A DNA stretch of 64,000 nt from contig MFJU01000042.1 in the NCBI GenBank assembly GCA_001779315.1, positions 747-64,746 on the forward strand, read 5' to 3'. The notes below the pieces were generated by a model that did not search any database, was not told the origin of the DNA, and worked only from the letters and a program-made list of their open reading frames with translations. The position numbers and the translations under genes were made by a program. This DNA comes from Candidatus Gottesmanbacteria bacterium RIFCSPLOWO2_01_FULL_42_22 (GTDB lineage: Bacteria > Patescibacteriota > Microgenomatia > 2-02-FULL-39-11). Position 1 is the first letter of the stretch, and each line of letters opens with the position of its first letter. Below are positions 1-15,044 of this stretch, piece by piece.

Positions 1-202
1 ATTCATGTTAATATATTATAAAACTTACCAAGCTATTGATCCACACAAAGAATGGATGTTCATAACATAAAAAATGTTGAAATTAGAATAGAATAGTCCG
101 AAAATCGTCTTTTTAGTCCTCGTAGCTTTAGCGAAGTGGACCATCAGGGATGCCGAGTTTTTTTAGAGCTTCATAACTGTCTAAATAGTTAACTTCTCCA
201 TT

Positions 203-211
203 TGTTATAAT
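203..211 (+). promoter_or_regulatory. extended -10 promoter element TGTTATAAT upstream of 218-703
   Basis: TGnTATAAT 7 nt before the ATG; same 9-mer as in repeat right modules D and F. Confidence 0.45.
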
Positions 212-217
212 AATTTC

Positions 218-703
218 ATGAATAAAAAACAACCTATCGCTTATGTTATTTGCGGATTTATCGGAGCAGGTAAGACGACTTTTGCCAGAAAACTGGAAAA
301 GGAAACAAAAGCAATAAGAATTACTAAAGACGAATGGATAATAAAAATTTTCGGAAATAAAATAACGTCAGACAAAAACTTTGAAGTGTATGACAAAAAT
401 ATAACTGAGTTGGCAACGAATATTGCTTTCAAAATTCTGAAAGCCGGTAAAGATGTGATTTTAGATGAAGGTTTTTGGGTTAAATCCCAAAGAGATGATA
501 TAAAGAAGAAAATACTTCAAGTAGGAGCAAAGCCAATTTTTTATTATGTCGAAACCTCGGTAGAGAAAATGAAAGAAAGGGTTATTAACCGAAGCAATAA
601 TCCCACAAAAGATTCATTTGAAATAAATGAAGAAATGTTTGATAAATATTTAAAATATTGGGAACCACCAAAGAAAGAAGAAGGTATTCTTTTAGCTGCT
701 TAA
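218..703 (+). CDS. P-loop NTPase / predicted kinase (AAA_33-like)
   Basis: Walker A GFIGAGKTT near the N-terminus; 161 aa; TGTTATAAT extended -10 at 203-211 just upstream. Confidence 0.6.
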   Translation: MNKKQPIAYVICGFIGAGKTTFARKLEKETKAIRITKDEWIIKIFGNKITSDKNFEVYDKNITELATNIAFKILKAGKDVILDEGFWVKSQRDDIKKKILQVGAKPIFYYVETSVEKMKERVINRSNNPTKDSFEINEEMFDKYLKYWEPPKKEEGILLAA

Positions 704-784
704 CGAATTAAAGTTCGGATTGCTTCAGCTAGGGGAAGCGAGAATTAAGTATAGATTGTCACAACGATCTAGTATATTAGAAAG

Positions 785-1660
785 TCAATCTTTAGAAGCA
801 ATAAAATCTCGCAGTTTTTCCGCAGTATTAAAATCAGGATTGACCGACAATGCTGCTGCAACCCTTGCTGTCATTAATGCCTTATCCATGGGATTTAAAA
901 CATCAGGAAAGTCCATTCTTGATGCTTCTTCTTGCATTTCTGATCCAGGAAATCCATTCAGAAATGCTGCGATTTGATCATGTACAAGTTCAACATTACA
1001 TACAACATCCCTTCTTATTTTTGCAGTAGGTGAACTTAACAAGCTGTTATTTTCTTCAGATGCAGGAGATATAAACCGTCCGGTTTCCAGCTGAATTTTA
1101 TCAAGTTGATCCAAAGTTAATCGTGATTTGGTTCTCGGTTGCTCAGTTGGTACATTTTCCGCAATTTTAAAATCACCTTTAAGCACTCCGGCATCTTTTA
1201 ATTGATCAATTACCTGCTGAACTTTTTGTCGAGCAAGAGGAGAATTATTTAGTAATTCTATAAGTGTTCTTGGGTGAACTTGAAAATAGGTCGCCATTCC
1301 CAAATTAAATTTAAAATCACAACTTCTCAGTATGATATGTTCCGGATCGGACTTACTTGTCTCAACAAGGAGAGCATCTGGTATTTTTAAGGATCCTGCT
1401 TGTTTTTTAACTGCCTGATCTACATCCAACGAAATTATATGGCTTATTTCATGATCACCTTCTAATCTAAGAGCAAATCGAGCAAGCTCTGGTTGTGACC
1501 GAAATTCTTCCAGTCGAGGAAGGCACACTCTTTCTTCCCATGCCTTACCTATCCAGTTGCTGAATCCATTTCCTTTTGCATCAGCAGCTTCTCTTAACGC
1601 TTTTAATCCTTGTTGTCCAAAATGGACTTCTACTTTTCCTTCTGGTGATGAACTTAACAT
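785..1660 (-). CDS. hypothetical protein with HExxH motif (possible metallopeptidase-like)
   Basis: 291-aa ORF; GDHEISH (HExxH) motif; no other recognisable family signature. Confidence 0.35.
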   Translation of the reverse strand: MLSSSPEGKVEVHFGQQGLKALREAADAKGNGFSNWIGKAWEERVCLPRLEEFRSQPELARFALRLEGDHEISHIISLDVDQAVKKQAGSLKIPDALLVETSKSDPEHIILRSCDFKFNLGMATYFQVHPRTLIELLNNSPLARQKVQQVIDQLKDAGVLKGDFKIAENVPTEQPRTKSRLTLDQLDKIQLETGRFISPASEENNSLLSSPTAKIRRDVVCNVELVHDQIAAFLNGFPGSEMQEEASRMDFPDVLNPMDKALMTARVAAALSVNPDFNTAEKLRDFIASKD

Positions 1661-1814
1661 ATTTCAAAATTATTACTTAATCTATTTATAATTCAAAACT
1701 CACAATATGACAATAATTACCAGGATTCAAAAGTGGTTCGAAAATCGTCAAAGAATCAAGTTCTTTGTAAACCCATCCCGGAAGCTAAACCTGAGTATAA
1801 AAAATTCAAACATC

Positions 1815-1868
1815 GTCCATCCCTCGGAGCAATTTCAACGGTTTTCTATGGAATTCTTCGGATTTTAT
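1815..1868 (+). repeat. intergenic repeat copy A (right module only, degenerate)
   Basis: CGGAGCAATTTCAACGGTTTTCTATGGAATTCTTCGGATTTT. Confidence 0.6.
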
Positions 1869-1913
1869 TTTTTACCACATTTTCATCCGTGAATAATTTG
1901 TTAAAATAACAAT

Positions 1914-2525
1914 ATGAACAAAATAAAAGTTACCTCTGGGATGGCAATGTCCCTTGATGGGTTCACTGCTGGCCTAAATCAAAGTTTCGAAAAACCATTT
2001 GGAGACAATTTCGATTTAGACTTACTGGAGCGTTGGATGTTTGCTGAGCCGGAAAAGCATAAACATAAAAAAGAAATCGACGCTATTTTGGATGCAGGTG
2101 CGTTCATAATGGGTAATAATATGTTTGGCCCTAAAGACAGAAGAGACAATCCAGAATGGAAAGGGTGGTGGGGTGATAATCCCCCGTATCACGCTCCCGT
2201 TTTTGTGCTCTCCCACAAGGAGCGAGAACCGATAGAAATGGAAGGCGGAACGACATTCTTTTTTGTGACTGACGGTATTGAATCTGCTCTTTTACAAGCG
2301 AAAGAAGCAGCAGGTAATCGGAATGTAAAGATTAATGGAGGAGCAAATACCGTCAATCAATATTTAAAAGCTGGCTTTATCGATGAGCTATGGTTACATA
2401 TAGTTCCCGTAACCATTGGCGCAGGCACTCGACTTTTTGAGGAAGTGCCTCCTCTCAATCTCGAACCGATTGAAGTGAGTGGGACCAGTATGGTGACACA
2501 CATTAGATACAAAGTTTTAAAATAG
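1914..2525 (+). CDS. RibD C-terminal domain / dihydrofolate-reductase-like protein (YwjB family)
   Basis: 203 aa; N-terminal VTSGMAMSLDGF and C-terminal NGGANTVNQYLKAGFIDELWLHIVPV are typical of RibD_C reductases. Confidence 0.6.
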   Translation: MNKIKVTSGMAMSLDGFTAGLNQSFEKPFGDNFDLDLLERWMFAEPEKHKHKKEIDAILDAGAFIMGNNMFGPKDRRDNPEWKGWWGDNPPYHAPVFVLSHKEREPIEMEGGTTFFFVTDGIESALLQAKEAAGNRNVKINGGANTVNQYLKAGFIDELWLHIVPVTIGAGTRLFEEVPPLNLEPIEVSGTSMVTHIRYKVLK

Positions 2526-2548
2526 GGATTTCCACTGTATTAGCTTTT

Positions 2549-2665
2549 AGCTTCTTTATTTCATTCCATCTTTGTCTGAGTTCTCCAATATATCGTAAGT
2601 CCTGAAAAGCATGGATAATTGAGGCGTAATCAATAGTTATATTAATCCTAGGGATGGGGAGCAAG
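2549..2665 (+). repeat. intergenic repeat copy B (left module)
   Basis: ...TTCCATC...GTCCTGAAAAG...TATTAATCCTAGGGATGGGGAGCA. Confidence 0.8.
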
Positions 2666-2739
2666 TTAGACCCATAAAATTCCTTGTTGTAACTTTTTAT
2701 TAATAAAAGTATAAAATCCTGATATAATACATAATAATT

Positions 2740-3051
2740 ATGTATACCCTAGATCAGTTATTCACCTTTGGAAATTGGTTTGTGAAACTAGGCAAGGAAG
2801 AAGATTTTAAGAAGGAATGGAAAGAGTTTGCGGACTGGAGTATACGAAATAAACTAGGATCTAATACTCCATATCTCCTCCAAGATATTACCAATGTAAG
2901 ACACTTCATTTCTTTTGGTCCTTGGCCTGATGTACAAACAATCAAAAAATGGCGGCAAACGGAAGAGTTTCAACTTTTTGTAGAAAAAGCAAAAGAACTT
3001 TGCGAGAGATTTGAACCCAACACCCTAAAACTTGTAGCTCTGGGAGAGTAG
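2740..3051 (+). CDS. small hypothetical protein (possible ABM/Dabb-like ferredoxin-fold protein)
   Basis: 103-aa ORF bounded by repeats B and C; TGATATAAT promoter at 2720-2728. Confidence 0.35.
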   Translation: MYTLDQLFTFGNWFVKLGKEEDFKKEWKEFADWSIRNKLGSNTPYLLQDITNVRHFISFGPWPDVQTIKKWRQTEEFQLFVEKAKELCERFEPNTLKLVALGE

Positions 3052-3096
3052 ACTTCATAACTAACATTTTCAGAAATAAAAATCGTTATTTTGTAA

Positions 3097-3228
3097 CTTC
3101 TTTATCTCCTCCCACCTCTGCCTCAATTCACCAACCTGCCTGCCGGCAGGCAGGTATACCTTATGTCCTGAAAAACCCGGATAATTGAACTGAAATCTCG
3201 GGTTTATTAATCCTAGGGATGGGGAGTA
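3097..3228 (+). repeat. intergenic repeat copy C (left module with 20-bp palindrome)
   Basis: CTCCTCCCACCTCTG...CCTGCCTGCCGGCAGGCAGG (3135-3154)...AAAACCCGGATAATTGAACTGAAATCTCGGGTTTATTAATCCTAGGGATGGGGAG. Confidence 0.85.
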
Positions 3229-3256
3229 AAACAAATAATAATTAATAACCTCAATA

Positions 3257-3286
3257 TTGACATTCTGACAAATTCATCTGTATAAT
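3257..3286 (+). promoter_or_regulatory. sigma70-like promoter TTGACA-N18-TATAAT upstream of brnT
   Basis: TTGACA 3257-3262 and TGTATAAT ending at 3286; ATG at 3298. Confidence 0.5.
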
Positions 3287-3297
3287 GCAGTATATAC

Positions 3298-3594
3298 ATG
3301 AGGATTCTTAAAGAGCCATTGGAATTTCAGTGGGACAAAGGAAACGTAGGAAAAAGTTATAAGAAACATAAAGTAAAAGACAAAGAAGCGGAAGAGCCAT
3401 TTTTTGATAAAAGACATAAAATCTTCAAGGACAAGCTGCATTCTAAGGGTGAAGAAAGAAACAGAATTGCAGGTAAAACAAAAAAAGGGAGACTTTTATT
3501 TATAGTATTTACCATAAGAGAAAACAGAATAAGGATAATATCTGCTCGTGATATAAATAAAAAGGAGGTGTATCTATATGAAGAAAAGGCTTAA
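3298..3594 (+). CDS. brnT: BrnT-like toxin (DUF497) of type II TA system
   Basis: 98 aa; EFQWDKGN...KHKV...EAEE...RIISARDINKKE matches the BrnT signature; overlaps the downstream antitoxin by 17 nt. Confidence 0.75.
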   Translation: MRILKEPLEFQWDKGNVGKSYKKHKVKDKEAEEPFFDKRHKIFKDKLHSKGEERNRIAGKTKKGRLLFIVFTIRENRIRIISARDINKKEVYLYEEKA

Positions 3595-3844
3595 ACTGCC
3601 CGTCTTTAAAAACGAAGACGAAGAAAGAAAATTCTGGGCGAAAGTTGATTTGTCTGAATATTATGATGCTAATGATCTAGAGTTAGTCAGTTTTCCTAAT
3701 TTAAAACCGACAACTAAACCTGTATCAATCAGAATTCCTGAATATTTACTCAACAGAGTTAAAGAGGAGGCAAATGAACTTAATATTCCTTATCAGACAT
3801 TAATTAAACAGTATATTCAAAAAGGTGTTTTTTCTTCTCAATAA
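3578..3844 (+). CDS. brnA: BrnA-like antitoxin
   Basis: 88 aa; N-terminal KLPVFKNEDEERKFW and C-terminal RHH-like region; paralog of 7278-7559. Confidence 0.75.
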   Translation: MKKRLKLPVFKNEDEERKFWAKVDLSEYYDANDLELVSFPNLKPTTKPVSIRIPEYLLNRVKEEANELNIPYQTLIKQYIQKGVFSSQ

Positions 3845-3878
3845 ATCCGAATTAGGTTAAGAAGGGTTCATTTCTTAA

Positions 3879-4000
3879 AAGTTCGGATAATATCCCACAG
3901 GGGGAGCAATTTCTACGGATTTCTTCGGATTTTTTATTTTTATATACTCCATTCGGTTTTCACAGGGTTCAAACTTGGGTATTGTTATAATACTTGATAA
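3879..4000 (+). repeat. intergenic repeat copy D (truncated left module plus full right module with promoter)
   Basis: GGGGGAGCAATTTCTACGGATTTCTTCGGATTTT...TGTTATAAT (3983-3991). Confidence 0.8.
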
Positions 4001-4699
4001 ATGCTTCTTAATGCTAAACCTCTAATCTCTTGCGTTATTCCTTTTTGGAATGAAGGCTCTCGTCTCTATGCAGTACTAGATGAGGTAAGTAAAACTAAAA
4101 ATATTTTTGAAGTAATTTGTGTTGATGATGCTTCATATGAAAATAATTCAGATGAAATACGAAAACACTATCCTAATTTTAAACTTCTTCGGCTAAAAAA
4201 GAACTATGGAAAGTCCGGTGCTATCCTTGAAGGATTAAAGATAGTAAAGGGTAATTTAATTTTACTTCTCGATGCCGACATTCGTAACCTTAATCATAAT
4301 GAAATTGAAAAAGCAATAAAAATTGTCCAACAAAATCCAGACGTAGACATGCTTATCTTAAGAAGAATTAAAGCACCATTATTTGTAAAACTTACTCGAG
4401 GTGATGTTTTGGCATCAGGAGAAAGAATTGTTAAATTAAATTACTTGATGAATGTTTTAAAAAATTCAACGAAAGGATGGGAGCTTGAATCAAAAATAAA
4501 TCTGTTTATGTTTAATAATAATAAGAAAGTTTACTGGTTTCCACATTCTGGGATTAATACTCATTGGAAATGGGGCATAAAAGCGGATTTTAAATATCAT
4601 AAGAAAAAGATAGCTGATATTTACTCAATCGGTTTTACTAATCTACTTAAATTATTCTTATTTTTTGGAAAAGAAGAAGTAAAATACCAAAAAATCTAA
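4001..4699 (+). CDS. family 2 glycosyltransferase (GT-A fold)
   Basis: ISCVIPFWNE...VICVDDAS...LLLDADI motifs; paralog of 29604-30284. Confidence 0.7.
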   Translation: MLLNAKPLISCVIPFWNEGSRLYAVLDEVSKTKNIFEVICVDDASYENNSDEIRKHYPNFKLLRLKKNYGKSGAILEGLKIVKGNLILLLDADIRNLNHNEIEKAIKIVQQNPDVDMLILRRIKAPLFVKLTRGDVLASGERIVKLNYLMNVLKNSTKGWELESKINLFMFNNNKKVYWFPHSGINTHWKWGIKADFKYHKKKIADIYSIGFTNLLKLFLFFGKEEVKYQKI

Positions 4700-4763
4700 G
4701 AATATAAAAAATTGAAAGTTAGACTGTTTTGGAAAAGATAATCTCGCAAGTAGTTTTCAGTTC

Positions 4764-4826
4764 TGATAATGACCGATTGGGGGAGTAATTTCTACGGATT
4801 TCTCCGTTTTTCTTCGGATTTTATAA
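4764..4826 (+). repeat. intergenic repeat copy E (junction plus right module)
   Basis: GGGGGAGTAATTTCTACGGATTTCTCCGTTTTTCTTCGGATTTT. Confidence 0.75.
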
Positions 4827-4868
4827 ATTAATATACAATTATATACTTATCACCTATAATAACCCTTA

Positions 4869-6032
4869 ATGTTAAGAAAAGTATTCCCATTGATATTATT
4901 TTTACTTATTACAACTCCTGTTCAGGCTGTTAGTTGGCCGCCTGAGGTCAAACCGGAACAGGGAAGAGCATCCGGTACGCTAGGAATCGGGGATGATGAC
5001 AAGCTAAACGTCACCATCGACTTTTGGAATGTGGGGGTGGTGGGCGGCGGTGATTACGGGAAAGTCATAGTTGACCTCGGATGTACGCAAAAAACTATTG
5101 GTGATGGGTGGCAATGTGTAGCAGATGATGAGCCTCCTGAAATTGGAACTTTTAGCGGTGGGCCTAATGGGGAAATTACCATAAACGGAGAAACAAGCAT
5201 CCAACTGGTTAATGGAACTTATTTTAAATCTAATCTTGATAAAACATTCCAGGCAACTGTAGAGAATCCTGAAATATTTTCAAAATACAGATGGAGTATG
5301 GATGAATCGGTTCCGATCCCCGAAATTAAGGAAGGGAAATATGAGGTAGAAACCGCCGGTGCTGCAGTATTTAATGATCTTTATGGGCAGGTGGAAGTTA
5401 ATATTCCTCGTCCGGACGGAACCTATGATGAAGAGGAATGGAATCTAGCTAAAATAGACATGAAGTTGCCACCCGGCACGCGCATTAAAGTGAGTGAAAA
5501 AAGCGGTTTGATGCTTGCATTCACCGATAATCAAACAAATATTACCGTAGGACCGGAAACAGAAATCGTGCTGGTTGCAGTGGAACCGCAAGATACCGTG
5601 ATTAAACTGCTGTGGGGGAATCTGAAGGCCAATGTCAAAAAGATGATGAAGGACGGATCAATGGAAGTAGAAATGAGCCAGGCAGTTGCGGGAATTAAAG
5701 GAACCCAATTTATCTTAAATGAGACAAAGACAGAGTCTTCAATTTGGGTTACCGAAGGAACTGTTAAATTCACCAGCAAGAGTACAGGCAAATCGGTGGA
5801 TGTATCCAGAGGAGAAGCAGTAATTGCATCTGCCAAAGGTCTGTCAGAAAAAACAATCTTTGATCCGGTTGAAGAAGAAAAGAAATGGCAGGAGTTTGCA
5901 GATAATTTTAAGAAAACAAATACTTCTATTGCCGGTAATAACAATAGTATGTATATAGTAGTGGGAATTGTTTTTGCTGCTGCAATAATTGGTTTCCTTA
6001 TATTAAAAGTTAGGAAAACTAAGCGAGCTTGA
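4869..6032 (+). CDS. secreted protein with C-terminal TM anchor; C-terminal domain shared with paralogs
   Basis: N-terminal signal peptide; C-terminal hydrophobic anchor MYIVVGIVFAAAIIGFLIL; the last ~130 aa are homologous to 6324-6680 and to a relic at ~18296. Confidence 0.45.
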   Translation: MLRKVFPLILFLLITTPVQAVSWPPEVKPEQGRASGTLGIGDDDKLNVTIDFWNVGVVGGGDYGKVIVDLGCTQKTIGDGWQCVADDEPPEIGTFSGGPNGEITINGETSIQLVNGTYFKSNLDKTFQATVENPEIFSKYRWSMDESVPIPEIKEGKYEVETAGAAVFNDLYGQVEVNIPRPDGTYDEEEWNLAKIDMKLPPGTRIKVSEKSGLMLAFTDNQTNITVGPETEIVLVAVEPQDTVIKLLWGNLKANVKKMMKDGSMEVEMSQAVAGIKGTQFILNETKTESSIWVTEGTVKFTSKSTGKSVDVSRGEAVIASAKGLSEKTIFDPVEEEKKWQEFADNFKKTNTSIAGNNNSMYIVVGIVFAAAIIGFLILKVRKTKRA

Positions 6033-6049
6033 GAGAGGAGGCGCGCAAT

Positions 6050-6256
6050 AATTTCCTTATTTCCACCCATCCCTGTCTTAATTCCCCAATATATCTTAAA
6101 TCCTGAAATACCCGGGTAATTGAACTGTAATCTGCGCTTATATTAATCCTAGGGACGGGGAGCACTTTCTACCGATTTCTGCGGATTTTTTATTTTCATA
6201 AACTCCATTCGGTTTTCACAGGGTTCAAACTTGGGTATTGTTATAATACTTGATAA
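6050..6256 (+). repeat. intergenic repeat copy F (full left and right modules)
   Basis: CCACCCATCCCTG...TATTAATCCTAGGGACGGGGAGCACTTTCTACCGATTTCTGCGGATTTT...TGTTATAAT (6239-6247); right part about 96% identical to copy D. Confidence 0.85.
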
Positions 6257-6323
6257 ATGCTTCTTAATGCTAGGGACTAAGGATCCAAAATCTGGATTTA
6301 ATAAAGAGTACGACAGTTTTGAA

Positions 6324-6680
6324 ATGCAGATGGCCAAGCTCAGTGCAAAATTGAAAGGCACGACAGTAGTCGTAAAAGAAGATGGAGAAACCAGCAGCAT
6401 AAAAGTGATCGAAGGTGTGGCAGAAGTCACGGACATACAAACTGGCAAAACAGTTGAGATAAGCGAGGGTAAGATGATTGCCGCGACGGATACAGGCATC
6501 GGCGAGGTACAGGCTTTTGATGTCAACGCTGAAAACGAAAAGTGGCAGGATTTTACAGACGAAATAGGTAAAACAGGTACCAATCAAAAAAACTATCTGT
6601 ATATCTTAGTAATTCCGATAATACTGTTAGCTACTATAATCGCTGTTGTATTAGCATTAAAAAAGAAAAAAAGCGCTTAA
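6324..6680 (+). CDS. truncated paralog of the 4869-6032 C-terminal domain with TM anchor
   Basis: EKWQDFTDEIGKT vs EEKKWQEFADNFKKT plus a C-terminal TM helix. The track ORF at 6231 starts inside the repeat, so start at internal Met 6324 is preferred. Confidence 0.4.
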   Translation: MQMAKLSAKLKGTTVVVKEDGETSSIKVIEGVAEVTDIQTGKTVEISEGKMIAATDTGIGEVQAFDVNAENEKWQDFTDEIGKTGTNQKNYLYILVIPIILLATIIAVVLALKKKKSA

Positions 6681-6714
6681 AGAATTTCACTATTTAAAGA
6701 GTGCCTTCAGGTTG

Positions 6715-6860
6715 AAGTTTTTTAATCTCCTCCCACCTCTGTCTCTGCACTCCAATAAACCGAAAATCCTGAAAAACCCGGATAATTAAACTGAATGAAA
6801 TCGCGGGTTTATTAATCCTAGGGACGGGGAGCAATTTCTACGAATTTACTATGGAGATTG
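6715..6860 (+). repeat. intergenic repeat copy G
   Basis: CTCCTCCCACCTCTG...AAAACCCGGATAATTAAACTGAATGAAATCGCGGGTTTATTAATCCTAGGGACGGGGAGCAATTTCTACGAATTT. Confidence 0.85.
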
Positions 6861-6879
6861 CTTCTAATTTTTAACTTCC

Positions 6880-6888
6880 TGATATAAT
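6880..6888 (+). promoter_or_regulatory. extended -10 TGATATAAT upstream of the YciI-like gene
   Basis: Same 9-mer at 2720-2728 (before 2740) and 20061-20069 (before 20076). Confidence 0.4.
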
Positions 6889-6914
6889 CACCTTATTATT
6901 AACTTCAAAAACTT

Positions 6915-7256
6915 ATGCAATTTCTTGTAATCGGAAAAGACGGCAAAGATGAAAAGGCGCTGGAGCGAAGACTGGTAGCTCGAGAAGCTCATATTAAGTT
7001 GGGTGATGAGATGGAGAAATCAGGTGATCGATGGTATGGAGCGGTTCTTTTGGACGATAACAATAAAATGATAGGGTCTTTGGCAGTGATGGATTTTCCT
7101 TCTGAAAAAGAGTTATATGAATGGCTGAAGCGTGAGCCTTATATAACTGGTAAAGTCTGGGAAACAGTGGAAGTTTATAAATGCAATGTTAAAAATCCCT
7201 GGAAGTTTAGCCGTCCGGAATCTTTCTTTAAGGAAAGAGAAAAACTGAATAAGTAA
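6915..7256 (+). CDS. YciI-like protein
   Basis: 113 aa; MQFLVIGKDGKDEKALERRLVAREAHIK...LLDD pattern typical of YCII-related domain. Confidence 0.55.
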   Translation: MQFLVIGKDGKDEKALERRLVAREAHIKLGDEMEKSGDRWYGAVLLDDNNKMIGSLAVMDFPSEKELYEWLKREPYITGKVWETVEVYKCNVKNPWKFSRPESFFKEREKLNK

Positions 7257-7277
7257 ATTTTCAACTGATGCAATATT

Positions 7278-7559
7278 TTACTGATTCAGGCCAAGTTCCT
7301 GTTTTACCTTCTCACTTAATATAATTTTCACCAGAGATTGATAGGGAACGTCTCTTTTGTTAGCCAGAGTTTTAAGAGCCGCAATAAGCGACTCGGGTAA
7401 TCTGATGGAAACCGTTCTGGTTGACGGTTTAAGATTTTGTAAGACCGGATTAATAATAGCCTGACTCATATCAAAATAATCAGTTAAATCATGGCGTGCA
7501 AAGAAATCTCTTTCCTCATCCTCATTTTTAAATTTAGGTAATTTTTTAATTTGTTTCAT
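7278..7559 (-). CDS. brnA: BrnA-like antitoxin (second copy)
   Basis: KLPKFKNEDEERDFF N-terminus; overlaps BrnT start by 4 nt. Confidence 0.75.
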   Translation of the reverse strand: MKQIKKLPKFKNEDEERDFFARHDLTDYFDMSQAIINPVLQNLKPSTRTVSIRLPESLIAALKTLANKRDVPYQSLVKIILSEKVKQELGLNQ

Positions 7560-7906
7560 TTTGATTTATCACCTCTTTTCTTAATTTGTTTATTGTTTAA
7601 ACTTTCAGCTAATTTATAAGCCAGTTTGTCTTTTTTACCCTGATCCCTTGCCGAAATAATTCTGATTTTGTCTTTTCGAATTGTAAAATATACAGCTAGT
7701 TGTCTGCCTTTGTTAGTTTTACCCAATGCACCCCACCTGTTTTCAGTCTGTGAATGTTGTTTGTTTTCAATGAAAACAAGTGGGTTATTACTGAAAATTT
7801 CTTCACATTCCCGATACTCAACATTATGTTTTGCTTGATTTTTTTTAATATTAGCTTCATCCCAATCAAAACCATGCAACTTATTTAAATCAAAACTTTT
7901 ACTCAT
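7556..7906 (-). CDS. brnT: BrnT-like toxin (second copy)
   Basis: FDWDEANIKKNQAKHNV...RIISARDQGKKD; DUF497 signature. Confidence 0.75.
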   Translation of the reverse strand: MSKSFDLNKLHGFDWDEANIKKNQAKHNVEYRECEEIFSNNPLVFIENKQHSQTENRWGALGKTNKGRQLAVYFTIRKDKIRIISARDQGKKDKLAYKLAESLNNKQIKKRGDKSK

Positions 7907-7950
7907 AGGCTATTTATGTATACAATGGTACAATACATTTAGCCTCATGT

Positions 7951-8050
7951 CAAGGTATGGATAATAGATGTGTAGTCGATGGTTATATTAATCCTAGGGA
8001 CGGGGAGCAAATTCTATGGATTTCTTTGGGTTTCTTCGGATTTATTCGAA
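7951..8050 (+). repeat. intergenic repeat copy H (5'-truncated)
   Basis: TATTAATCCTAGGGACGGGGAGCAAATTCTATGGATTTCTTTGGGTTTCTTCGGATTT. Confidence 0.8.
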
Positions 8051-8054
8051 TTTT

Positions 8055-8393
8055 TCAACCGCTTTTTAATTCACTTTTATAGTACTTCTCAGCAAATTTC
8101 GCGATCTCATTAATAATGGGGAGTATGCCACGCCCTTTTTTAGTTAGTTCATAAACAACTGAAATTTTATCAAGAGTTTCTTCTTTTCTAATGACTATTT
8201 GCTCTTTTTCAAGTTTTTTTAATCTGTCTGCCAGAGTTGTGGGGTTTATGCCAGATATCGACCGTTGAATTTCATTAAACCGCATTGAGCTATTACCTAA
8301 ATTGCTTATTATGCATAAAATCCACGCATCACCAATCATATTGATTGCGTTGTTTAATTCTTCCGGAATATGGCGATTATTACTTGTTGACAT
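8055..8393 (-). CDS. HxlR-family transcriptional regulator
   Basis: 112-aa wHTH; divergent from the quinone oxidoreductase. Confidence 0.7.
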   Translation of the reverse strand: MSTSNNRHIPEELNNAINMIGDAWILCIISNLGNSSMRFNEIQRSISGINPTTLADRLKKLEKEQIVIRKEETLDKISVVYELTKKGRGILPIINEIAKFAEKYYKSELKSG

Positions 8394-8469
8394 ACTATAA
8401 ATAGTGTAGTACTCTATTTTTTAGACTGCTATAAATTATATACTAAATTTTAGGAATAGTCTAACTCTT

Positions 8470-9408
8470 ATGAAAGCTATACAGATTAATAGATACGGCG
8501 GAAACGATGTTTTGGAACTTAACAATAATGCTCCAAAGCCCACCATAAAACAGGGGCAAATATTACTGGAAAATTACGCAGCCAGCGTAAATCCAATTGA
8601 TTGGAAGTTCCGGGCAGGATATTTGCAGAAAATGGCACCGGTTCCTTTGCCGGTTACTCTTGGAGGGGATTTTGCAGGCAAAATCTCAGAAGTAGGAACA
8701 GGTGTTTCTGAATTTAAGGTAGGTGACGAGGTATACGGGCAAGCAATTATTTTAAATGGTGGTTCCGGATCATTTGCTGAACAAGTTTCAGCAAATGCCG
8801 AAAATACCGCTCTTAAACCAAAAACAGCGAGTTTCGAGGAAGCAGGAGCTTTGCCACTTGTTGGAGTCAGCGCTTTGCAAGCTTTAGGAGAGCATATCAA
8901 ATTGAAAAGTGGGCAAAAAATCCTTGTCCATGGTGGAGCAGGAGGTATTGGACACATGGCGGTCCAATTGGCAAAAGTGTTTGGTGCATATGTTGCAACA
9001 ACCATAAAGACAGATGATGTGGAGTTTGTAAAAAATCTTGGTGCGGATCAAGCGATTGATTACAAAACTCAAAAATTTGAAAATATTCTTAAAGACTTTG
9101 ATGCGGTTTTTGATACAGTAGGTAGTGAAACAACAGATAAATCATTTGGAGTTCTCAAAAAAGGAGGAGTAATTGTATCTATGTTTGGAGAGCCGAATCA
9201 AGAGTTGGCACAAAAATATGGAGTTACTGCTATTGGGCAAGGAACACGAACTGATACTGTTCATTTAGCTCGCATCGCAGAAATTGTTGATAGTGGAAAA
9301 ATAAAAGTGCATCTTGATAAAGTTTTTTCGTTCGAAAACGCGAAAGAAGCATTTATATATCAGGAAGAAGTTCATCCTCGAGGTAAAGTTGTCATAAAAA
9401 TCAAATAA
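8470..9408 (+). CDS. NADPH:quinone oxidoreductase (MDR / zinc-ADH superfamily)
   Basis: MKAIQINRYGG...GGAGGIGHMAVQLAK Rossmann motif; 312 aa. Confidence 0.75.
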   Translation: MKAIQINRYGGNDVLELNNNAPKPTIKQGQILLENYAASVNPIDWKFRAGYLQKMAPVPLPVTLGGDFAGKISEVGTGVSEFKVGDEVYGQAIILNGGSGSFAEQVSANAENTALKPKTASFEEAGALPLVGVSALQALGEHIKLKSGQKILVHGGAGGIGHMAVQLAKVFGAYVATTIKTDDVEFVKNLGADQAIDYKTQKFENILKDFDAVFDTVGSETTDKSFGVLKKGGVIVSMFGEPNQELAQKYGVTAIGQGTRTDTVHLARIAEIVDSGKIKVHLDKVFSFENAKEAFIYQEEVHPRGKVVIKIK

Positions 9409-9429
9409 ATACCGGTCTTTTTGTCTTTT

Positions 9430-9468
9430 TAACCCCATCCCTTCTCAGTCTCAATTCTCCTATATACC
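9430..9468 (+). repeat. intergenic repeat copy I (left-end fragment only)
   Basis: AACCCCATCCCTTCTCAGTCTCAATTCTCC resembles the 5' end of copies B and F. Confidence 0.45.
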
Positions 9469-9514
9469 TTGTTGACATCATAGTGGACATACTATATGAT
9501 ATTTACATATAGAT

Positions 9515-9889
9515 ATGCCAAAAGTAACAATTTCAAAACCAAGATCATTTGGTAATGTTGAAAAGTTTATTGAGCCTTGTATTCTTCTTCTTTTATCTAA
9601 AGATTCCTCTCACGGGTATGGTCTCATGGATGGTTTGGGGAAACATTGCGGTCACAATGTTGATATCGGCAATCTTTACCGCACGCTACGTAAGATGGAG
9701 AAAAATAAATGGATAGTTTCCGACTGGCAAAAGAATAAGATAGGACCTGATAAACGGACATACAAAATTTCTCCAAACGGAGTGACGATATTACACGAAG
9801 CGGCTTCATCGCTTAAAACCGCACAGCGTCTTCTCTCCCGGTTTCGAAATGGTTATAACAGGATTTATGATAATGGAGTAACTGTATGA
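9515..9889 (+). CDS. PadR-family transcriptional regulator
   Basis: LLLLSKDSSHGYGLMDGL...YRTLRKMEKNKWI pattern. Confidence 0.6.
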   Translation: MPKVTISKPRSFGNVEKFIEPCILLLLSKDSSHGYGLMDGLGKHCGHNVDIGNLYRTLRKMEKNKWIVSDWQKNKIGPDKRTYKISPNGVTILHEAASSLKTAQRLLSRFRNGYNRIYDNGVTV

Positions 9890-10209
9890 AGCTTACAATT
9901 GTGCTTTCCACAACTCATACAGAAACCAACTGGAATGCTTTAAGACTAGCCAATCTGGCTTTGAAAAAGGGAGATGAGGTGAGTTTATTTCTTTTAGGTG
10001 AAGCAGTTGAGTATGAAAATGCCAGTAGTGATAGGTTTAATATAAAGCAGCAAATTGATACTTTTCTAAAATCAGATAAAGCAAAAATTGTCGCCTGCGG
10101 AACCTGTATGAATTTAAGAAACCAGGAAAGCACGCAAACCTGTCCTAGGGGAGGATTGGAGGATTTTTATTCTCTTATATCAACAAGTGACAAAGTATTA
10201 ACATTTTAA
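9886..10209 (+). CDS. DsrE/DsrF-like protein
   Basis: 107 aa; KIVACGTCMNLR; overlaps the PadR stop. Confidence 0.55.
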   Translation: MKLTIVLSTTHTETNWNALRLANLALKKGDEVSLFLLGEAVEYENASSDRFNIKQQIDTFLKSDKAKIVACGTCMNLRNQESTQTCPRGGLEDFYSLISTSDKVLTF

Positions 10210-10217
10210 ATTACAGA

Positions 10218-10832
10218 ATGAAAAAGTTAATCGTACTCGTTTTGCTTGCTGCATTTCTTATTAATCCTTCTGCAATTTTTGCCCAACCAATGACAGGTAA
10301 GCAATTTCAATCTGCTACTGATGATCATACAGCCGGTGAAGAAGCGGAGGGAAAAGAAATATGGGAAAGATTACAGTCGAAGCAAATAATTTGCAATGAA
10401 CTTTCATATGGAAACTTCGGTTCTTTAGGAGAATACTATATGGGTCAAATGGTAGGAGATACCGGCAGGCATGCAGTGATGAATCAAATGATGACGGCAA
10501 TGTTAGGAGAGACAAGCGAAGAAAAGATGCATGTAGTAATGGGGAAAAGAATGAGCGGTTGTTATACCGGGACGAAGGGAGGTGGTAATCCGATGATGGG
10601 TTATGGTTGGAATAACATGATGGGCGGTTGGGGAGGTTTTGGTTTAGGCTGGGTATTTATGATTTTATTCTGGGCGCTGATTATTTTGGGCGTAGTTGGA
10701 CTTATTCGTTATTTAAGCGGGCAACACAATGCGGATAAGGGTAAAACCCCTCTGGATATTCTTAGAGAACGCTATGCAAAAGGCGAGGTAGACAAAAAGG
10801 AATTTGAAGAAATGAAGAAGGATTTAAGATAA
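10218..10832 (+). CDS. secreted/membrane Gly/Met-rich protein with C-terminal SHOCT domain
   Basis: Signal peptide; TM helix; C-terminal LRERYAKGEVDKKEFEEMKKDL. Confidence 0.5.
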   Translation: MKKLIVLVLLAAFLINPSAIFAQPMTGKQFQSATDDHTAGEEAEGKEIWERLQSKQIICNELSYGNFGSLGEYYMGQMVGDTGRHAVMNQMMTAMLGETSEEKMHVVMGKRMSGCYTGTKGGGNPMMGYGWNNMMGGWGGFGLGWVFMILFWALIILGVVGLIRYLSGQHNADKGKTPLDILRERYAKGEVDKKEFEEMKKDLR

Positions 10833-10876
10833 AATTTTTAAGAAAATCAGACCGGGTTTGCAGTCTCTTTATCTCT

Positions 10877-11242
10877 TCATAACCTTTTATTGGCCATTGC
10901 ATCAGCGCGTTTTTTACCCCAGTCACAGGCAAGTTTTAGAATAGGTGTTAAAGTTTGTCCTGCAGGTGTTAATGAATATTCAACTTTTGGAGGAATTTGT
11001 CTATATATTTTTCTTGAAACGATATTATCTCCTTCGAGTTCCCGTAGCTGGCGAGTCAGCATCCTTTGACTGCAATCTGGTATAAGTTTTCGCAATTCTC
11101 CAAATCGCTTTTTGCCATCAACTAGGTTCCAAAGAATTAGTGTTTTCCACTTGCCTCCAATTAACTCAAGTGTAAATGCAATGTAGCAGAAGTAATTTTT
11201 ATCCCCGACAGTGAAGTTTGCCATTGGTATACAAAATGTCAC
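10877..11242 (-). CDS. HxlR-family transcriptional regulator
   Basis: LELIGGKWKTLILWNL...RMLTRQLRELEGDNIVSRK. Confidence 0.7.
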   Translation of the reverse strand: MTFCIPMANFTVGDKNYFCYIAFTLELIGGKWKTLILWNLVDGKKRFGELRKLIPDCSQRMLTRQLRELEGDNIVSRKIYRQIPPKVEYSLTPAGQTLTPILKLACDWGKKRADAMANKRL

Positions 11243-11320
11243 TATACAACAATTTTGTGCGTACTTGCAAGAATAAAATTAGGGTTTAACATAAATAAAA
11301 GATAAGGAGGTGAATATAAA

Positions 11321-11683
11321 ATGGATAAGAAAATGGAAGTAAAAAATTTTACCTCTCCGGATGAAGTGAGGACATTCGAAAAGGGAAAGGTAGAACTGGT
11401 TAAAATCGGAGGCGCAATGGTTGGCAAAGCAACTTTTGAACCGGGATGGAAATGGTCTTTACATGTAAAATCACTGGCTAAAACTGAATGGTGCGAAGCT
11501 CCCCATTTCCAATACCTTATTTCGGGAACATTACACGTAGTAATGGCTGACGGTACTGAAACAGACTTAAAACCCGGCAGTGTATCCCTGCTGCCATCAG
11601 GCCATGATGCTTGGGTGGTTGGAAACGAACCGGTAGTTGGGGTAGATTTTCAGGGAATGGTTGACTACGCAAAAAAAGCTTAA
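11321..11683 (+). CDS. cupin domain protein
   Basis: 120-aa cupin_2-like; divergent from HxlR; Shine-Dalgarno AAGGAGG upstream. Confidence 0.6.
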   Translation: MDKKMEVKNFTSPDEVRTFEKGKVELVKIGGAMVGKATFEPGWKWSLHVKSLAKTEWCEAPHFQYLISGTLHVVMADGTETDLKPGSVSLLPSGHDAWVVGNEPVVGVDFQGMVDYAKKA

Positions 11684-11785
11684 AGACCAAATTATTAGAA
11701 TACACAACGTATATGATTGCAAGTAGCCCATCGGAAAAATTCGAAGGGTTGCTTTATGAAAAATTAACTATTGTCCGGATTGCAG

Positions 11786-11900
11786 TTTCCTAATCTTCTC
11801 CCACTGTTGTCGTAATTCCCCAATAATCTTCAAGTCCTGAAAAACCCGGATTATTGAGGTAAAATCGCGGGTTTATTAATCCTCAGGTACGGGGAGCATT
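11786..11900 (+). repeat. intergenic repeat copy J (left module)
   Basis: CTTCTCCCACTGTTGTCGTAATTCCCCAATAATCTTCAAGTCCTGAAAAACCCGGATTATTGAGGTAAAATCGCGGGTTTATTAATCCTCAGGTACGGGGAGCA. Confidence 0.85.
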
Positions 11901-12006
11901 TGATATCCCTCTGTTTGGAGTCAGGATGGTGTGAGCTCCCGAATGAGGGATTATTTAAGGAGAAAATAGAAAAAGAAAATGACTAAATTTGAAGCTAAAA
12001 GAGAAC

Positions 12007-12034
12007 CGTCCCCTATACTACGTCCCCTATACTA
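12007..12034. repeat. tandem 14-bp direct duplication CGTCCCCTATACTA x2
   Basis: Seen directly, immediately left of the GC-richer 12.1-14.9 kb segment. Confidence 0.7.
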
Positions 12035-12107
12035 TAATTACAGTTAACCTGATATTTCGTAATAGGAAGCCGAAATAGGCAGTCTCTCACTGCTGGGCTC
12101 AGCTGTC

Positions 12108-12695
12108 TTACCAGTCTTTCGGATCTGACCAGTGGGTTCTAGCCATCACCGCTACTTCGAAATTCGGATCATCTTTGGCTTGTAATCCAACCTTTGCTAC
12201 CGGATTGTTTCCGCCTCCGAAATTTCTGGTGACCACTTTAGCACCAAGGCTGTCCGCTGCAGAATTTGCACTCTCCAGCAATTTATCCAGCAAGCCCTGC
12301 GGGTCATCAGTGACGAAATCCAGATGCATCCCTCTCACGCCATTGCCTTCTTTTCCGGCTCTATGGAATTCAACGAATATATCTTGGCCGCCCTCAACCG
12401 GAATCCTCAGGTATCTTCTGAAATGGGTGACGCCGCCGGCAACCAGGTTATTGGCGATAAGCTTGTCACCGAATTGGCCTGTTGCTTCTTCAAATGATTT
12501 ATTATCGGGATAAGTTATGCCGATGTGATGGTAAAAAGTAGGGTGACCGGCTGCCCATTCGCTGACAGGAGTCAGCAGGGCATTGAGAAAATCAGGTCTT
12601 TCGATAATTTTTTCCGCAGGGCTCATTCCCTCCCTGATGGTTTCGTCTCTTAACCCGGTAATGGAGCTGACTGTATTTAAAATATTTTCATTCAT
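12108..12695 (-). CDS. hypothetical protein
   Basis: 195-aa ORF in a locally GC-richer segment; no family recognised. Confidence 0.3.
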   Translation of the reverse strand: MNENILNTVSSITGLRDETIREGMSPAEKIIERPDFLNALLTPVSEWAAGHPTFYHHIGITYPDNKSFEEATGQFGDKLIANNLVAGGVTHFRRYLRIPVEGGQDIFVEFHRAGKEGNGVRGMHLDFVTDDPQGLLDKLLESANSAADSLGAKVVTRNFGGGNNPVAKVGLQAKDDPNFEVAVMARTHWSDPKDW

Positions 12696-12721
12696 AGAGT
12701 TTTATATAATATTGATAATGA

Positions 12722-13723
12722 TTACCGGACGACCCTTACCTCCAGGGGCAGCTCGATATTATGTTCTTTTAATACTACTTCCTGGATTAAGTCCGCGACT
12801 CTTAGATAACCCTCTGCCGAGCCGCTGCCTGTATTCCCGATAATATTGGCCGTAGATTTTGCATGGACCATTCCGCCGATCATGATAGTCTCCGGAAGTC
12901 TTCCGGTCATGCCGATAAGCTGCGTGGCCGATATTCCGTTGTATCCGGGATGGTTAAGCACGAATGTATAACCCAATGTTGCGCCGACCGACCACGGGTT
13001 TTTTTCCTTGTTCTTTTTCCTCATTTCCTGACGGCCTAAATTGATGACCGTTCTGGCTTTGGCGATTTTTTCCGGATCTCCTTCTGCCAGCTGGAACATC
13101 ACGTTAAGGACTATTTTTGTATTATCCGGTTGCGAAAAAACACTTTGGCGGTCATGCATTTCCAGCTGTGACGTGTCCATCCGCACGACATCACCGTTTT
13201 CATCGACAACCTCGACCCAACTCAAAACCTGTCTTATAGATTCAGGCAGTTCGGTATCAGTGATCCCAAACGCTTCGAAGATTTTCGTATAGTTATGAAT
13301 CGGATGCCAGGCATCCGTCACTACCGCCCCGGCTGTGCTGCCGGGAATATCCCTGGCAAATTCCAGTCCGGTTAGATTACCACTTGCCGATTCTCTGGAA
13401 ACTGCCGAAATTTTAGTTCCGCCCCCCGCGCAGATTTGTGCGGTTCCTATATTCAGATGGATACCGTTCATCTTACGGCTGTCAATTACGACAGTTTTCA
13501 TGGGATCCAGTTCGGTACCCATTAAAAGCGTATTGCTGCCACCGCCGTGAACATGAAAGGTCTGCTGGTGATCATTAAGCAGCCGGTGTAATGTGGAAGC
13601 CTGTTCTGTATTGGGATAGACAACCAGCTGCGCCCGGCTTTTGAGCAGGGTTGAGCTTACTTCCGCATTATTGACAAAATCAATACCCAATGATTGCAGG
13701 CCTGTCTCCAGTCTTGAAAGCAT
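12722..13723 (-). CDS. murB: MurB-like FAD-binding oxidoreductase (UDP-N-acetylenolpyruvoylglucosamine reductase family)
   Basis: HVHGGGSNTLL and LTGLEFARDIPGSTAGAV motifs match the MurB FAD-binding domain; C-terminal MurB_C-like region. Confidence 0.6.
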   Translation of the reverse strand: MLSRLETGLQSLGIDFVNNAEVSSTLLKSRAQLVVYPNTEQASTLHRLLNDHQQTFHVHGGGSNTLLMGTELDPMKTVVIDSRKMNGIHLNIGTAQICAGGGTKISAVSRESASGNLTGLEFARDIPGSTAGAVVTDAWHPIHNYTKIFEAFGITDTELPESIRQVLSWVEVVDENGDVVRMDTSQLEMHDRQSVFSQPDNTKIVLNVMFQLAEGDPEKIAKARTVINLGRQEMRKKNKEKNPWSVGATLGYTFVLNHPGYNGISATQLIGMTGRLPETIMIGGMVHAKSTANIIGNTGSGSAEGYLRVADLIQEVVLKEHNIELPLEVRVVR

Positions 13724-14887: not shown

Positions 14888-15044
14888 GTCTGCAGTCAGT
14901 TCGGGGTAGCAATTCTAAATTTCAGCACGATTGTTTCCAAAAGGGATTCTCATAACTTCATTATTGTTCTCCGGTGTCAGTACATCCTTATTATTATGCT
15001 TATCTGTTTGTGGGGGATATCATTAGCAAATCCATTATTTCAAT

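Follow-up and report, generated by a model that had tools for sequence, protein, structure and literature searches.

Introduction

Islands that grow by serial integration at a tRNA gene have been described as tycheposons in Prochlorococcus (bioRxiv 10.1101/2020.12.28.424599), and islands accrete in tandem at the Asn tDNAs of Klebsiella (PMC4891358). Integron cassette arrays without an integrase, termed clusters of attC sites lacking integron-integrases (CALINs), were introduced with IntegronFinder (PMC4889954). A further point of comparison is provided by cis-mobilizable elements (CIMEs) and integrase-less "hitcher" elements bounded by att sites, both of which have been reviewed (PMC5704250, PMC11389934). 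Here, we analyze a 64,000-nucleotide stretch of DNA from a Gottesmanbacteria contig (the window), whose first 16.5 kb hold an array of small gene cassettes separated by a conserved repeat. This array is an island anchored at a tRNA-Asn gene and built of mini-cassettes, resembling the serial-integration islands, in an uncultured, Gottesmanbacteria-like groundwater host of the candidate phyla radiation (CPR, Patescibacteria). Two cassettes of the array, one carrying a GT2 glycosyltransferase gene and the other a truncated FecR-family gene, begin with an identical 69-nt module that holds a putative promoter and a start codon, and the main subject of this paper is how that duplication arose. To our knowledge, CPR bacteria have tiny genomes with few recognized mobile elements, and their exchange of accessory genes is poorly understood.

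An identical promoter and start module in two cassettes

The cassettes are separated by junction elements, named here by position (j3900, j6148 and so on). A complete junction consists of a P arm (about 85 nt), a tRNA-derived core (about 30 nt) and a P' arm (two to four 10-mers in helical phase), abbreviated P-O-P'. The features that bear on the duplication are as follows.

1-16455, plus strand: cassette array (island), with about 14 junction elements, all in one orientation, between cassettes of one or two genes
3909-3947, plus strand: P' arm of j3900, phased 10-mers ATTTCTACGG and ATTTCTTCGG and an AT-rich stretch; 89% identical to 6165-6203
3948-4016, plus strand: promoter/start module, copy 1, with extended -10 element TGTTATAAT, a 9-nt spacer, and the ATG and first 16 nt of the GT2 gene (4001-4016)
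4001-4699, plus strand: GT2 glycosyltransferase gene, 232 aa, a single-gene cassette (Pfam Glycos_transf_2, E = 8e-22)
4869-6032, plus strand: full-length FecR-domain protein gene, 387 aa (Pfam FecR, E = 9e-11), with TATAAT 8 nt before its ATG
6165-6203, plus strand: P' arm of j6148, two phased 10-mers and an AT-rich stretch
6204-6272, plus strand: promoter/start module, copy 2, 69/69 identical to copy 1
6257-6280, plus strand: 7-codon open reading frame (ORF) MLLNARD* (ATG CTT CTT AAT GCT AGG GAC TAA), a fusion product that starts at the copied GT2 ATG
6267-6680, plus strand: 137-aa ORF, C-terminal remnant of a FecR-family paralog with a transmembrane helix; its ATG lies within the copied 16 nt

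A repeat search places the duplication in one family, which pairs 3901-4016 with 6157-6272 (116 nt, 96% identity, offset 2256). Compared base by base, this pair falls into two parts. The block 3948-4016 is identical to 6204-6272 at all 69 positions, whereas the left flank, 3901-3947 versus 6157-6203, matches at 42 of 47 (89%), a difference in mismatches (0/69 against 5/47) with a Fisher p of 0.0096. Since the block is identical while the P' arms are only 89% so, the block is younger than the repeat around it. It is also the sole near-identical repeat within the first 12 kb, where the other repeat families show 60-90% identity. Copy 1 sits after the attL-type junction j3900 and copy 2 after the P-O-P' junction j6148. 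The earlier sequence-only reading of this DNA had already reported the duplication, and both the extended -10 element TGTTATAAT (3983-3991 and 6239-6247) and the 16-mer ATGCTTCTTAATGCTA that opens the GT2 ORF (4001-4016 and 6257-6272) are present in each copy as it stated; its second interval, 6199-6270, is about 5 nt off, and its length of ~85 bp fits neither of the two parts.

The extended -10 element probably serves as a promoter, an assignment made through its consensus; a generic sigma-70 scan missed it because the module has no -35 box. The module was found neither in any other junction of the window nor in any related array examined. A derivation of the module from a diverged P arm was rejected, as its score equaled the null mean. 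The window has a third TGTTATAAT at 203-217, 6 nt 5' of the ATG of an AAA_33 kinase gene (218-703), and CTCCATT precedes it just as it does in the module. This occurrence may be related to the module, as a short and diverged version, or it may be no more than the widespread extended -10 consensus.

The locus was retrieved by exact-protein look-ups from many groundwater metagenome contigs in ENA and JGI, assembled independently in several projects. Nine related loci, on seven distinct contigs, extend far enough for a test with a 68-nt string, and each of them has it twice at a distance of 2256 nt; these seven contigs, from different samples, projects and assemblers, share the same spacing and identical flanks. 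The right-hand junction of the duplication is also present in two further contigs of a close strain, L013 and L014; L014 reads straight through it, and L013 differs by one single-nucleotide polymorphism (GCTAAGGAC). The duplication is genuine and fixed, being common to all strains on record. The concern that it might be a collapsed or chimeric repeat, which the sequence-only reading had named as a refuting outcome, was therefore not borne out. In favor of such an artefact are an N-gap inside the module in the L013 scaffold, a region in which assemblers struggle, and a short contig, L029, that joins the GT2 3' end to an unrelated pyrG. Against it stand the seven contigs with both copies and the continuous sequence of L014, and we regard the artefact as extremely improbable. 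L029 (JGI Ga0209126_1014904, 2.4 kb) is 99.95% identical to window 2565-4622 and leaves the window sequence inside the GT2 3' end; past 4622 comes a CTP synthase (pyrG) gene absent from the window, and the join may reflect a strain rearrangement or a chimeric assembly. On its own, the duplication is a modest, fixed local rearrangement.

Genes behind the two copies

Fusion of the copied start to the recipient produces the 7-codon ORF at 6257-6280 that had been noted before, together with a feature then overlooked: a second ATG at 6267, also inside the copied 16 nt, which shares the reading frame of the downstream gene and starts a 137-aa ORF that ends at 6680. Gene callers in other assemblies report either this ORF or a TTG-started version of 149 aa. 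The downstream gene is a truncated paralog of 4869-6032, as had been proposed; the 137-aa ORF aligns with residues 264-387 of the 387-aa FecR protein at 38% identity over 125 aa (E = 4e-21). Its relatives on record are all equally short (137-149 aa), except one 91-aa fragment. In the close strain (L013 and L014; proteins P0002 and P0003), the first ~95 aa of the truncated paralog are near-identical to window 6267-6680, and the last ~40 aa, which form the transmembrane helix, resemble the C-terminus of the full-length FecR paralog. This pattern suggests gene conversion between the truncated and full-length paralogs in that strain.

A gene at L011 2513-3652 was considered as the full-length ancestor of the truncated paralog and set aside; it is the nearest full-length relative, but a different, more distant member of the family with an in-frame TAG. 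It belongs to Candidatus Gottesmanbacteria GW2011_GWA2_43_14 and is a near-full-length FecR-family cassette gene whose single TAG (KLLPGAY*ANIK) corresponds in position to the truncation and junction region of the window. It may be a pseudogene, or the stop may be a sequencing error.

The GT2 orthologs (73-76% identity) lie in ordinary operons without the array repeat, one of them in a glycosyltransferase/EpsG operon, and have unrelated upstream DNA. Because that DNA lacks the module, the module is not ancestral to GT2. The first ~8 residues of the GT2 family are variable. With orthologs devoid of the module and N-termini that vary, the direction of transfer between GT2 and the truncated paralog cannot be proved from these sequences, and an attempt to recognize the donor from GT2 N-termini or ortholog upstream regions was dropped for the same two reasons.

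Junction anatomy and the tRNA-Asn origin of the core

The junction elements around the duplication are as follows.

3857-3908, plus strand: junction j3900, attL type (x-O-P'), relic of the 3' half of tRNA-Asn from the anticodon (GTTAAGAAG) to the 3' end (ATCCCACAGGGGGAGCA)
4757-4826, plus strand: junction j4779, x-O-P', a degenerate core (GGGGGAGTA) and three phased 10-mers, without a P arm
6040-6142, minus strand: P arm of j6148; its minus strand is a conserved micro-ORF that includes the core (ORF 6019-6165, beginning VLPVPRINISADYSSITRVFQDLRYIGELRQGWVEIRKL)
6143-6164, plus strand: core of j6148, TTAATCCTAGGGACGGGGAGCA, from the T-arm and acceptor 3' strand of tRNA-Asn
6706-6847, plus strand: junction j6817, P-O-P', which closes the truncated-paralog cassette

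The core, CCTAGGGACGGGGAGCA, has seven matches in the window, all on the plus strand (2647, 3212, 6148, 6817, 7993, 11882 and 15407), against 0.08 expected, and degenerate copies lie at 1803, 3900, 4779, 14903 and 16440. An uninterrupted tRNA-Asn(GTT) gene ends about 625 nt before window position 1 (window -697 to -625; L001 9086-9158), and the core derives from its 3' end, GGTTCGAATCCTACCGGGGGAGCAA. The 3' 18-mer of this tRNA matches 3892-3909 at 16 of 18 positions, where 0.01 such matches are expected. By local alignment, the part of the tRNA between the anticodon and the 3' end is preserved in j3900 (z = 5.7; none of 300 shuffles as good) and likewise in j7993 (z = 6.1), and the other junctions keep the last ~20 nt. 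What the sequence-only reading had called the conserved repeat core thus evidently descends from the 3' end of tRNA-Asn(GTT). The tRNA homology of the junctions is confined to the last 33-45 nt of the tRNA; the P-arm consensus scores z = 4.2 against the tRNA owing solely to its last ~33 nt, and the remaining ~80 nt are not tRNA-derived. A reading of the whole P arm as a degenerate full tRNA with its upstream region was accordingly rejected (z = 0.2-0.8 for the left parts).

A group I intron is known in the tRNA-Asn of Patescibacteria as a structured element of several hundred nucleotides at position 35/36, between tRNA exons (PMC13011429). An intron relic was considered for the locus and dropped: no Rfam family exceeded its threshold in the window, the tRNA of L001 is uninterrupted, and BrnA coding sequence lies directly upstream of the j3900 relic.

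Each P arm begins directly after the stop codon of the preceding gene. The 10-mers of the P' arm (consensus ATTTCTNCGG) follow a strict 10-nt phase and number 16 in the array, all on the plus strand, against 5.4 expected in the whole window; an AT-rich stretch and then the promoter of the next cassette follow them. Such 10-mers lie directly 3' of cores at 3909-3932, 4788-4821, 6165-6188, 8010-8053 and 15448-15471. By appearance, they resemble arm-type protein-binding sites, a putative assignment, and their reverse complement, CCGTAGAAAT, has CC.TAG in common with the core's CCTAGGGAC.

Junctions of the x-O-P' type lie at 1803, 3900 and 4779, P-O-P' junctions at 6148, 6817, 7993 and 15407, and P-O-x junctions at 2647, 3212, 11882 and 16440. 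These three combinations are those that would be expected for attL, attP-like internal junctions and attR after serial integration at a tRNA gene. An unrelated Patescibacteria contig, L024, holds the full series tRNA-O-P', P-O-P' and P-O-B'. Its first junction runs from tRNA-Asn through GGAGGAGCA directly into GCTTCATTTTTCGTACCC, TATAAT and gene 1; its second runs from a P arm through GGGAAGCA into GCTTCATTTTTCGTACCC, TATAAT and gene 2; and its third passes from a P arm through GGGGAGCA into unrelated sequence. A junction in L022 ends in AAAGCCA, the native flank 3' of the tRNA in L001. The array is anchored at tRNA-Asn in two lineages (L001 and L024), not in all.

In an alignment of 15 junctions drawn from eight sequence sources, column entropy rises abruptly just 3' of GGGGAGC. 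Left of GGGGAGCAA, attL-type junctions carry a tRNA-type core, whereas attR- and attP-type junctions carry a P-type core (CCTAGGGAC); on this comparison, the exchange point must therefore lie inside GGGGAGCAA, at the tRNA 3' end.

The right end of the duplicated block

6264-6277, plus strand: core-like 14-mer TTAATGCTAGGGAC across the right end of the duplication, where GCTA, up to 6272, forms the last bases of the identical block

This 14-mer matches the core's TTAATCCTAGGGAC at 13 of 14 positions and is the sole such match in 64 kb outside the true repeats (0.03 expected over both strands, 128 kb). The chance that it would fall exactly at the block end is ~1e-6, or ~1e-3 after allowing for every 14-mer of the junction element, and the resemblance of this junction to the core is probably not accidental. 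Together with 6143-6156, it forms a 13/14 direct repeat that flanks 107 nt. The sequence-only reading had correctly recognized the octamer CTAGGGAC as the start of the core and placed the end of similarity between GCTA and GGGAC, but it understated the coincidence as one of 8 bp only.

Its further proposal, recombination within the core, holds in part. The likeness to the core is beyond chance, yet the point between CTA and GGGAC is not where the array breaks. About 30 junctions were compared across the window and seven other genomes, and in every one of them homology ends right after GGGGAGC(A), the 3' end of the tRNA-derived core, which is 8 nt right of GGGAC and 13 nt right of the boundary between CTA and GGGAC. 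None of these junctions breaks at that boundary, and the other cassette boundaries break after GGGGAGCA. The objection raised with the proposal, that the match is one of chance, is disfavored by these odds. Neither core nor P' arm continues past GGGAC, where one third of control coding windows score as high; a decayed core and P' arm after the junction was rejected as not significant.

Because the identical block ends after GCTA, GGGAC belongs to the recipient. As native codons of the paralog, CTA-GGG-ACT would read Leu-Gly-Thr. In both paralogs, 30 aa separate the Gly from the Gly-Thr, and nucleotide identity reaches 17/39 (p = 0.03); the protein score, however, comes out no better than rank 154 of 374.

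Origin of the duplication

We think it somewhat probable that the duplication arose by transfer of a 69-bp patch between the two cassettes, through gene conversion or homology-facilitated illegitimate recombination. The patch would have comprised the extended -10 promoter, the 9-nt spacer, and the ATG with 13 more bases. Its left exchange would have been resolved within the P' arms that the two cassettes already had in common, and its right exchange would have ended at a short core-like microhomology (TTAAT-CTA), so that one end was illegitimate and the event was not a normal site-specific crossover. A 5'-truncated, otherwise promoterless FecR-family gene would have gained a promoter in this way. 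The ATG at 6267 would give an in-frame start to the membrane-anchored 137-aa remnant, which may then be expressed, and the ATG at 6257 would yield the 7-codon peptide only. In this sense, the duplication would be a clean example of a gene fragment in a mobile-element island rescued by the promoter and start codon of a neighbor. The earlier claim that the 5' end of a cassette had been copied into a new location is upheld for the promoter and 16 coding nucleotides; its direction, from GT2, is not demonstrable. Tandem duplication of the GT2-FecR pair followed by deletion was rejected, as the paralogs are 38% identical but the modules 100%.

Several observations weigh against a patch transfer as described. 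No ancestral, full-length version of the truncated paralog was found in related genomes, where the sequence-only reading had suggested looking for the ancestral arrangement; all strains on record share the rearranged one. The 13/14 match is too good for an arbitrary microhomology even after generous correction, and whatever recognizes the core may have been involved. The promoter is a consensus-based assignment, and the generic sigma-70 scan, with 26 sites against 23 expected, is uninformative in this AT-rich DNA. The junctions are read as att sites from their anatomy, and no member of an integrase, resolvase or transposase family turned up in the window, in ~9-10 kb upstream (L001) or in related arrays. 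Furthermore, three more distant lineages with one or two P-arm/core copies have no tRNA within 10 kb.

A different account of the right end invokes a hypothetical site-specific recombinase of the array acting off target at secondary sites, namely the core-like TTAATGCTA in the GT2 5' end, CTAGGGAC in the paralog, or both. Strands would then be joined at or next to the left binding site of the core, where CCTAGGGAC lies directly left of the GGGGAGCAA exchange region. The 13/14 match at the exact end of the block (0.03 expected per 64 kb) and its direct repeat at 6143-6156 agree with this account, as does the fact that likeness to the core stops exactly after GGGAC, where P-type and tRNA-type cores begin to share sequence. 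We nonetheless consider it unlikely. The identical block ends after GCTA and not after GGGAC, which did not come from the GT2 side; the sequence beyond is neither core- nor P'-like; none of the ~30 other junctions breaks there; no recombinase gene was found; and the close strain has GCTAAGGAC. The pseudo-sites would, in addition, have just 3-4 nt in common, and recombination between such sites is atypical for tyrosine recombinases. A wider proposal includes this off-target reaction, and we offer it tentatively, as a doubtful extension. The array would be the trace left in CPR bacteria by a cassette system that resembles integrons and is as yet undescribed. Its promoter-bearing mini-cassettes, each with a lambda-type P-O-P' site that mimics the tRNA-Asn 3' end and a conserved antisense micro-gene of about 40 codons, would accumulate at tRNA-Asn, and a recombinase acting in trans, unrecognizable by current profiles or encoded elsewhere, would shuffle them. 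The duplication would then be a fossil of that recombinase's off-target reaction.

There may also have been no discrete duplication, both cassettes having inherited the module as an extended P' arm whose right-hand 69 nt were later homogenized by conversion; the right end of identity would then mark the boundary between element and cargo in both. In L024, a P' arm that includes TATAAT is indeed ~85-90% common to two successive cassettes and diverges right after the -10 box. The GT2 orthologs outside arrays lack the module, so GT2 must have acquired it too, and with N-termini as variable as those of the GT2 family, MLLNA need not be native. We judge this account improbable, given that the module is absent from the other junctions of the window and all related arrays examined, that other P' arms of the window precede unrelated, cassette-specific promoters, and that a recent conversion would still be needed to explain 0/69 against 5/47 mismatches. 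Transfer of a 69-bp patch remains the reading that we prefer.

A conserved micro-ORF in the P arm

On the minus strand, the P arm and core read xLPVPRINITLDFTSIIRAFQDLRYIGELRQRWEEIKKLQ. Variation among 15 unique aligned copies of the P arm has a period of 3 (p = 0.0012). In the micro-ORF frame, synonymous changes make up 61% of the single-base codon differences, and 13 copies contain 3 stops between them; the share is 11-19% in four of the five remaining frames and 55%, with 21 stops, in the antisense frame that has the wobble position in common. The P arm therefore behaves as a minus-strand coding sequence would, and may encode a peptide of ~40 aa. Copies of the micro-ORF (~40 aa, LPVPRINITLDFTSIIRAFQDLRYIGELRQRWEEIKKLQ) lie on the minus strand at 2503-2664, 6019-6165, 6694-6834 and 11780-11899, and at more than 100 loci elsewhere. 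With a profile search, 115 protein clusters were recovered, which measure 33-76 aa and come without exception from Patescibacteria, Levybacteria among them. No consistent start stands at the first codon, and several copies in the window are broken.

The peptide has no Pfam, NCBIfam or PDB sequence matches. An AlphaFold2 model from 77 sequences (predicted local distance difference test score 82.7) shows an extended N-terminus and one 32-residue helix (residues 13-44). A ribbon-helix-helix (CopG/Arc) protein was excluded on this basis, as the model has one long continuous helix in place of a beta-strand and two helices. Likewise, the P arm is not a fragment of a long "master" gene, as in a split integrase of the SSV type: none of the 115 profile hits falls outside 33-76 aa, and P-O-P' junctions have in-frame stops a short way upstream.

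An identical, perfect 20-nt palindrome, CCTGCCTGCCGGCAGGCAGG, occupies the same position in three P arms (3135-3154, 15330-15349 and 16361-16380). It breaks the micro-ORF frame; a very small mobile hairpin is one possible identity, an optional structural element another.

Cargo and mobility of the array

The array extends ~700 nt to the left of the window, up to tRNA-Asn(GTT). Its cassettes measure 0.5-1.5 kb and hold one or two genes each, and GC content is 35-38% over the first 12 kb against 38-45% in the rest of the window. The cargo comprises AAA kinase, RibD_C, ABM, two BrnT/BrnA pairs, GT2, FecR, YCII, HxlR with ADH, PadR with DsrE and SHOCT, a cupin, and a PIN/Phd pair. The BrnT/BrnA pairs (with a CopG-type antitoxin) lie in opposite orientations at 3298-3844 (plus) and 7278-7906 (minus), and the PIN/Phd pair at 15482-16211; toxin-antitoxin pairs are consistent with stabilization of a cassette island. 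By consensus, TATAAT stands 8-11 nt before the ATG of GT2, FecR, BrnT and ABM, which implies leaderless or nearly leaderless mRNAs and cassettes that would mostly have their own promoters.

Apparently ordinary genes, MurB among them, lie inside the array at 12.1-14.9 kb. This part (12108-14887) holds a MurB-like reductase, a 195-aa ORF and a 318-aa ORF between array stretches, with 44% GC against 35% in the cassettes, and a degenerate core (GGGGTAGCAATTCTAAATTTC) at 14903-14925 stands directly 3' of the 318-aa gene.

Candidatus Gottesmanbacteria GW2011_GWA2_43_14 is the only species-representative genome with the exact core, and its array of at least 22 kb has the same junctions and mostly different cargo. 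Related genomes place the BrnTA block (window 7278-7955) in four different contexts, and in one of these it adjoins the SHOCT cassette. Cassette content varies between species while the junction repeats are conserved, a pattern that marks the array as recombinationally dynamic, its cassettes evidently shuffled. The sequence-only reading had taken the duplication as direct evidence of an active array. That the array is dynamic agrees with these comparisons; the duplication itself is old and fixed, and is not evidence of current activity. In the strain variants L005 and L006, an IS3-family transposase (HTH_Tnp_1 and rve) and other genes replace the AAA_33 kinase cassette of window 1-780, and no tRNA lies within 4.6 kb upstream.

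No integrase fragments were seen in the array units. The nearest approaches to a recombinase are a resolvase 7.6 kb from the single element copy in L030 and the IS3 transposase of L005 and L006. A candidate integrase at 12722-13723 proved to be MurB. The 291-aa ORF at 785-1660 and the element neighbors of ~360 aa without Pfam matches in L024 and L025 were examined as hidden recombinases and discarded, being mutually unrelated and without recombinase signal. ORFs of 275-404 aa with no Pfam match at E <= 0.001 lie at 785-1660 (minus strand), 28337-29197, 32386-33600 and 49015-49842; of these, the first falls within the array, on the opposite strand.

Comparison with known systems

The context of the duplication outweighs the duplication itself: behind a tRNA-Asn gene lies a stock of one-gene cassettes whose att-like junctions are complete. 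A miniature inverted-repeat transposable element or repetitive extragenic palindromic repeat does not fit these junctions, all copies of which lie on one strand within the first 16.5 kb of 64 kb and have weakly inverted ends without a stable fold. The searchable literature yielded no account of arrays like this one in CPR bacteria, which is a weak negative.

The duplication alone recalls homology-facilitated illegitimate recombination and promoter capture, in which one end lies in a homologous anchor (here the P' arm) and the other at very short homology, and a gene fragment gains a foreign promoter and start codon. It departs from ordinary cases in that its short homology is a near-copy of the array's recombination-site core, which that mechanism does not predict.

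Like CALINs, the array is a one-directional string of short, mostly single-gene accessory and toxin-antitoxin cassettes, with a conserved recombination-site-like repeat (~130 nt) between them, no adjacent integrase, and an order shuffled among relatives. In contrast to CALINs, its repeat is not attC but is derived from a tRNA 3' end and has lambda-like arms, and its cassettes appear to have their own promoters instead of a common Pc, with several on the opposite strand. Four junctions folded on the plus strand, two of them also on the minus strand, formed no attC hairpin better than shuffled sequences (z = -0.5 to +1.8, and +1.0 to +1.8 for the bottom strand), except for one junction copy that owes its score to the inserted 20-nt palindrome. 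By inspection, junction ends carry no R'' or R' boxes (RYYYAAC/GTTRRRY). An integron attC reading was rejected on both grounds. CIMEs share with the array att-bounded segments that lack their own recombinase, are presumed to be mobilized in trans and accumulate in tandem. They differ in being decayed remnants, several kilobases long, of integrative and conjugative or mobilizable elements in Firmicutes, whereas the units here are mini-cassettes and no helper element was identified.

The closest resemblance is to the tycheposon and Klebsiella islands. These likewise have a tRNA gene at the head, as in L001 and L024, scattered partial tRNA 3' ends as att relics, newer elements beside older ones, and accessory cargo that varies between close relatives; the direct repeats of the tRNA 3' end and the full junction series place the present array among them, although it encodes no integrase of its own. 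Unlike those islands, its units are ten-fold smaller (0.5-1.5 kb) and carry neither integrase nor replication module, most cassettes remain separated by complete P-O-P' junctions, a conserved micro-ORF (>100 clusters) forms the P arm, and the host is a CPR bacterium. The general kind of island is therefore already known, and what sets this one apart is its mini-cassettes, its retained P-O-P' junctions, its micro-ORF P arm and the absence of a recombinase or recombinase fragment. If its cassettes are moved in trans, the array would be a counterpart of the integrons, a compact platform for gene capture with att sites of the tRNA type as its basis.

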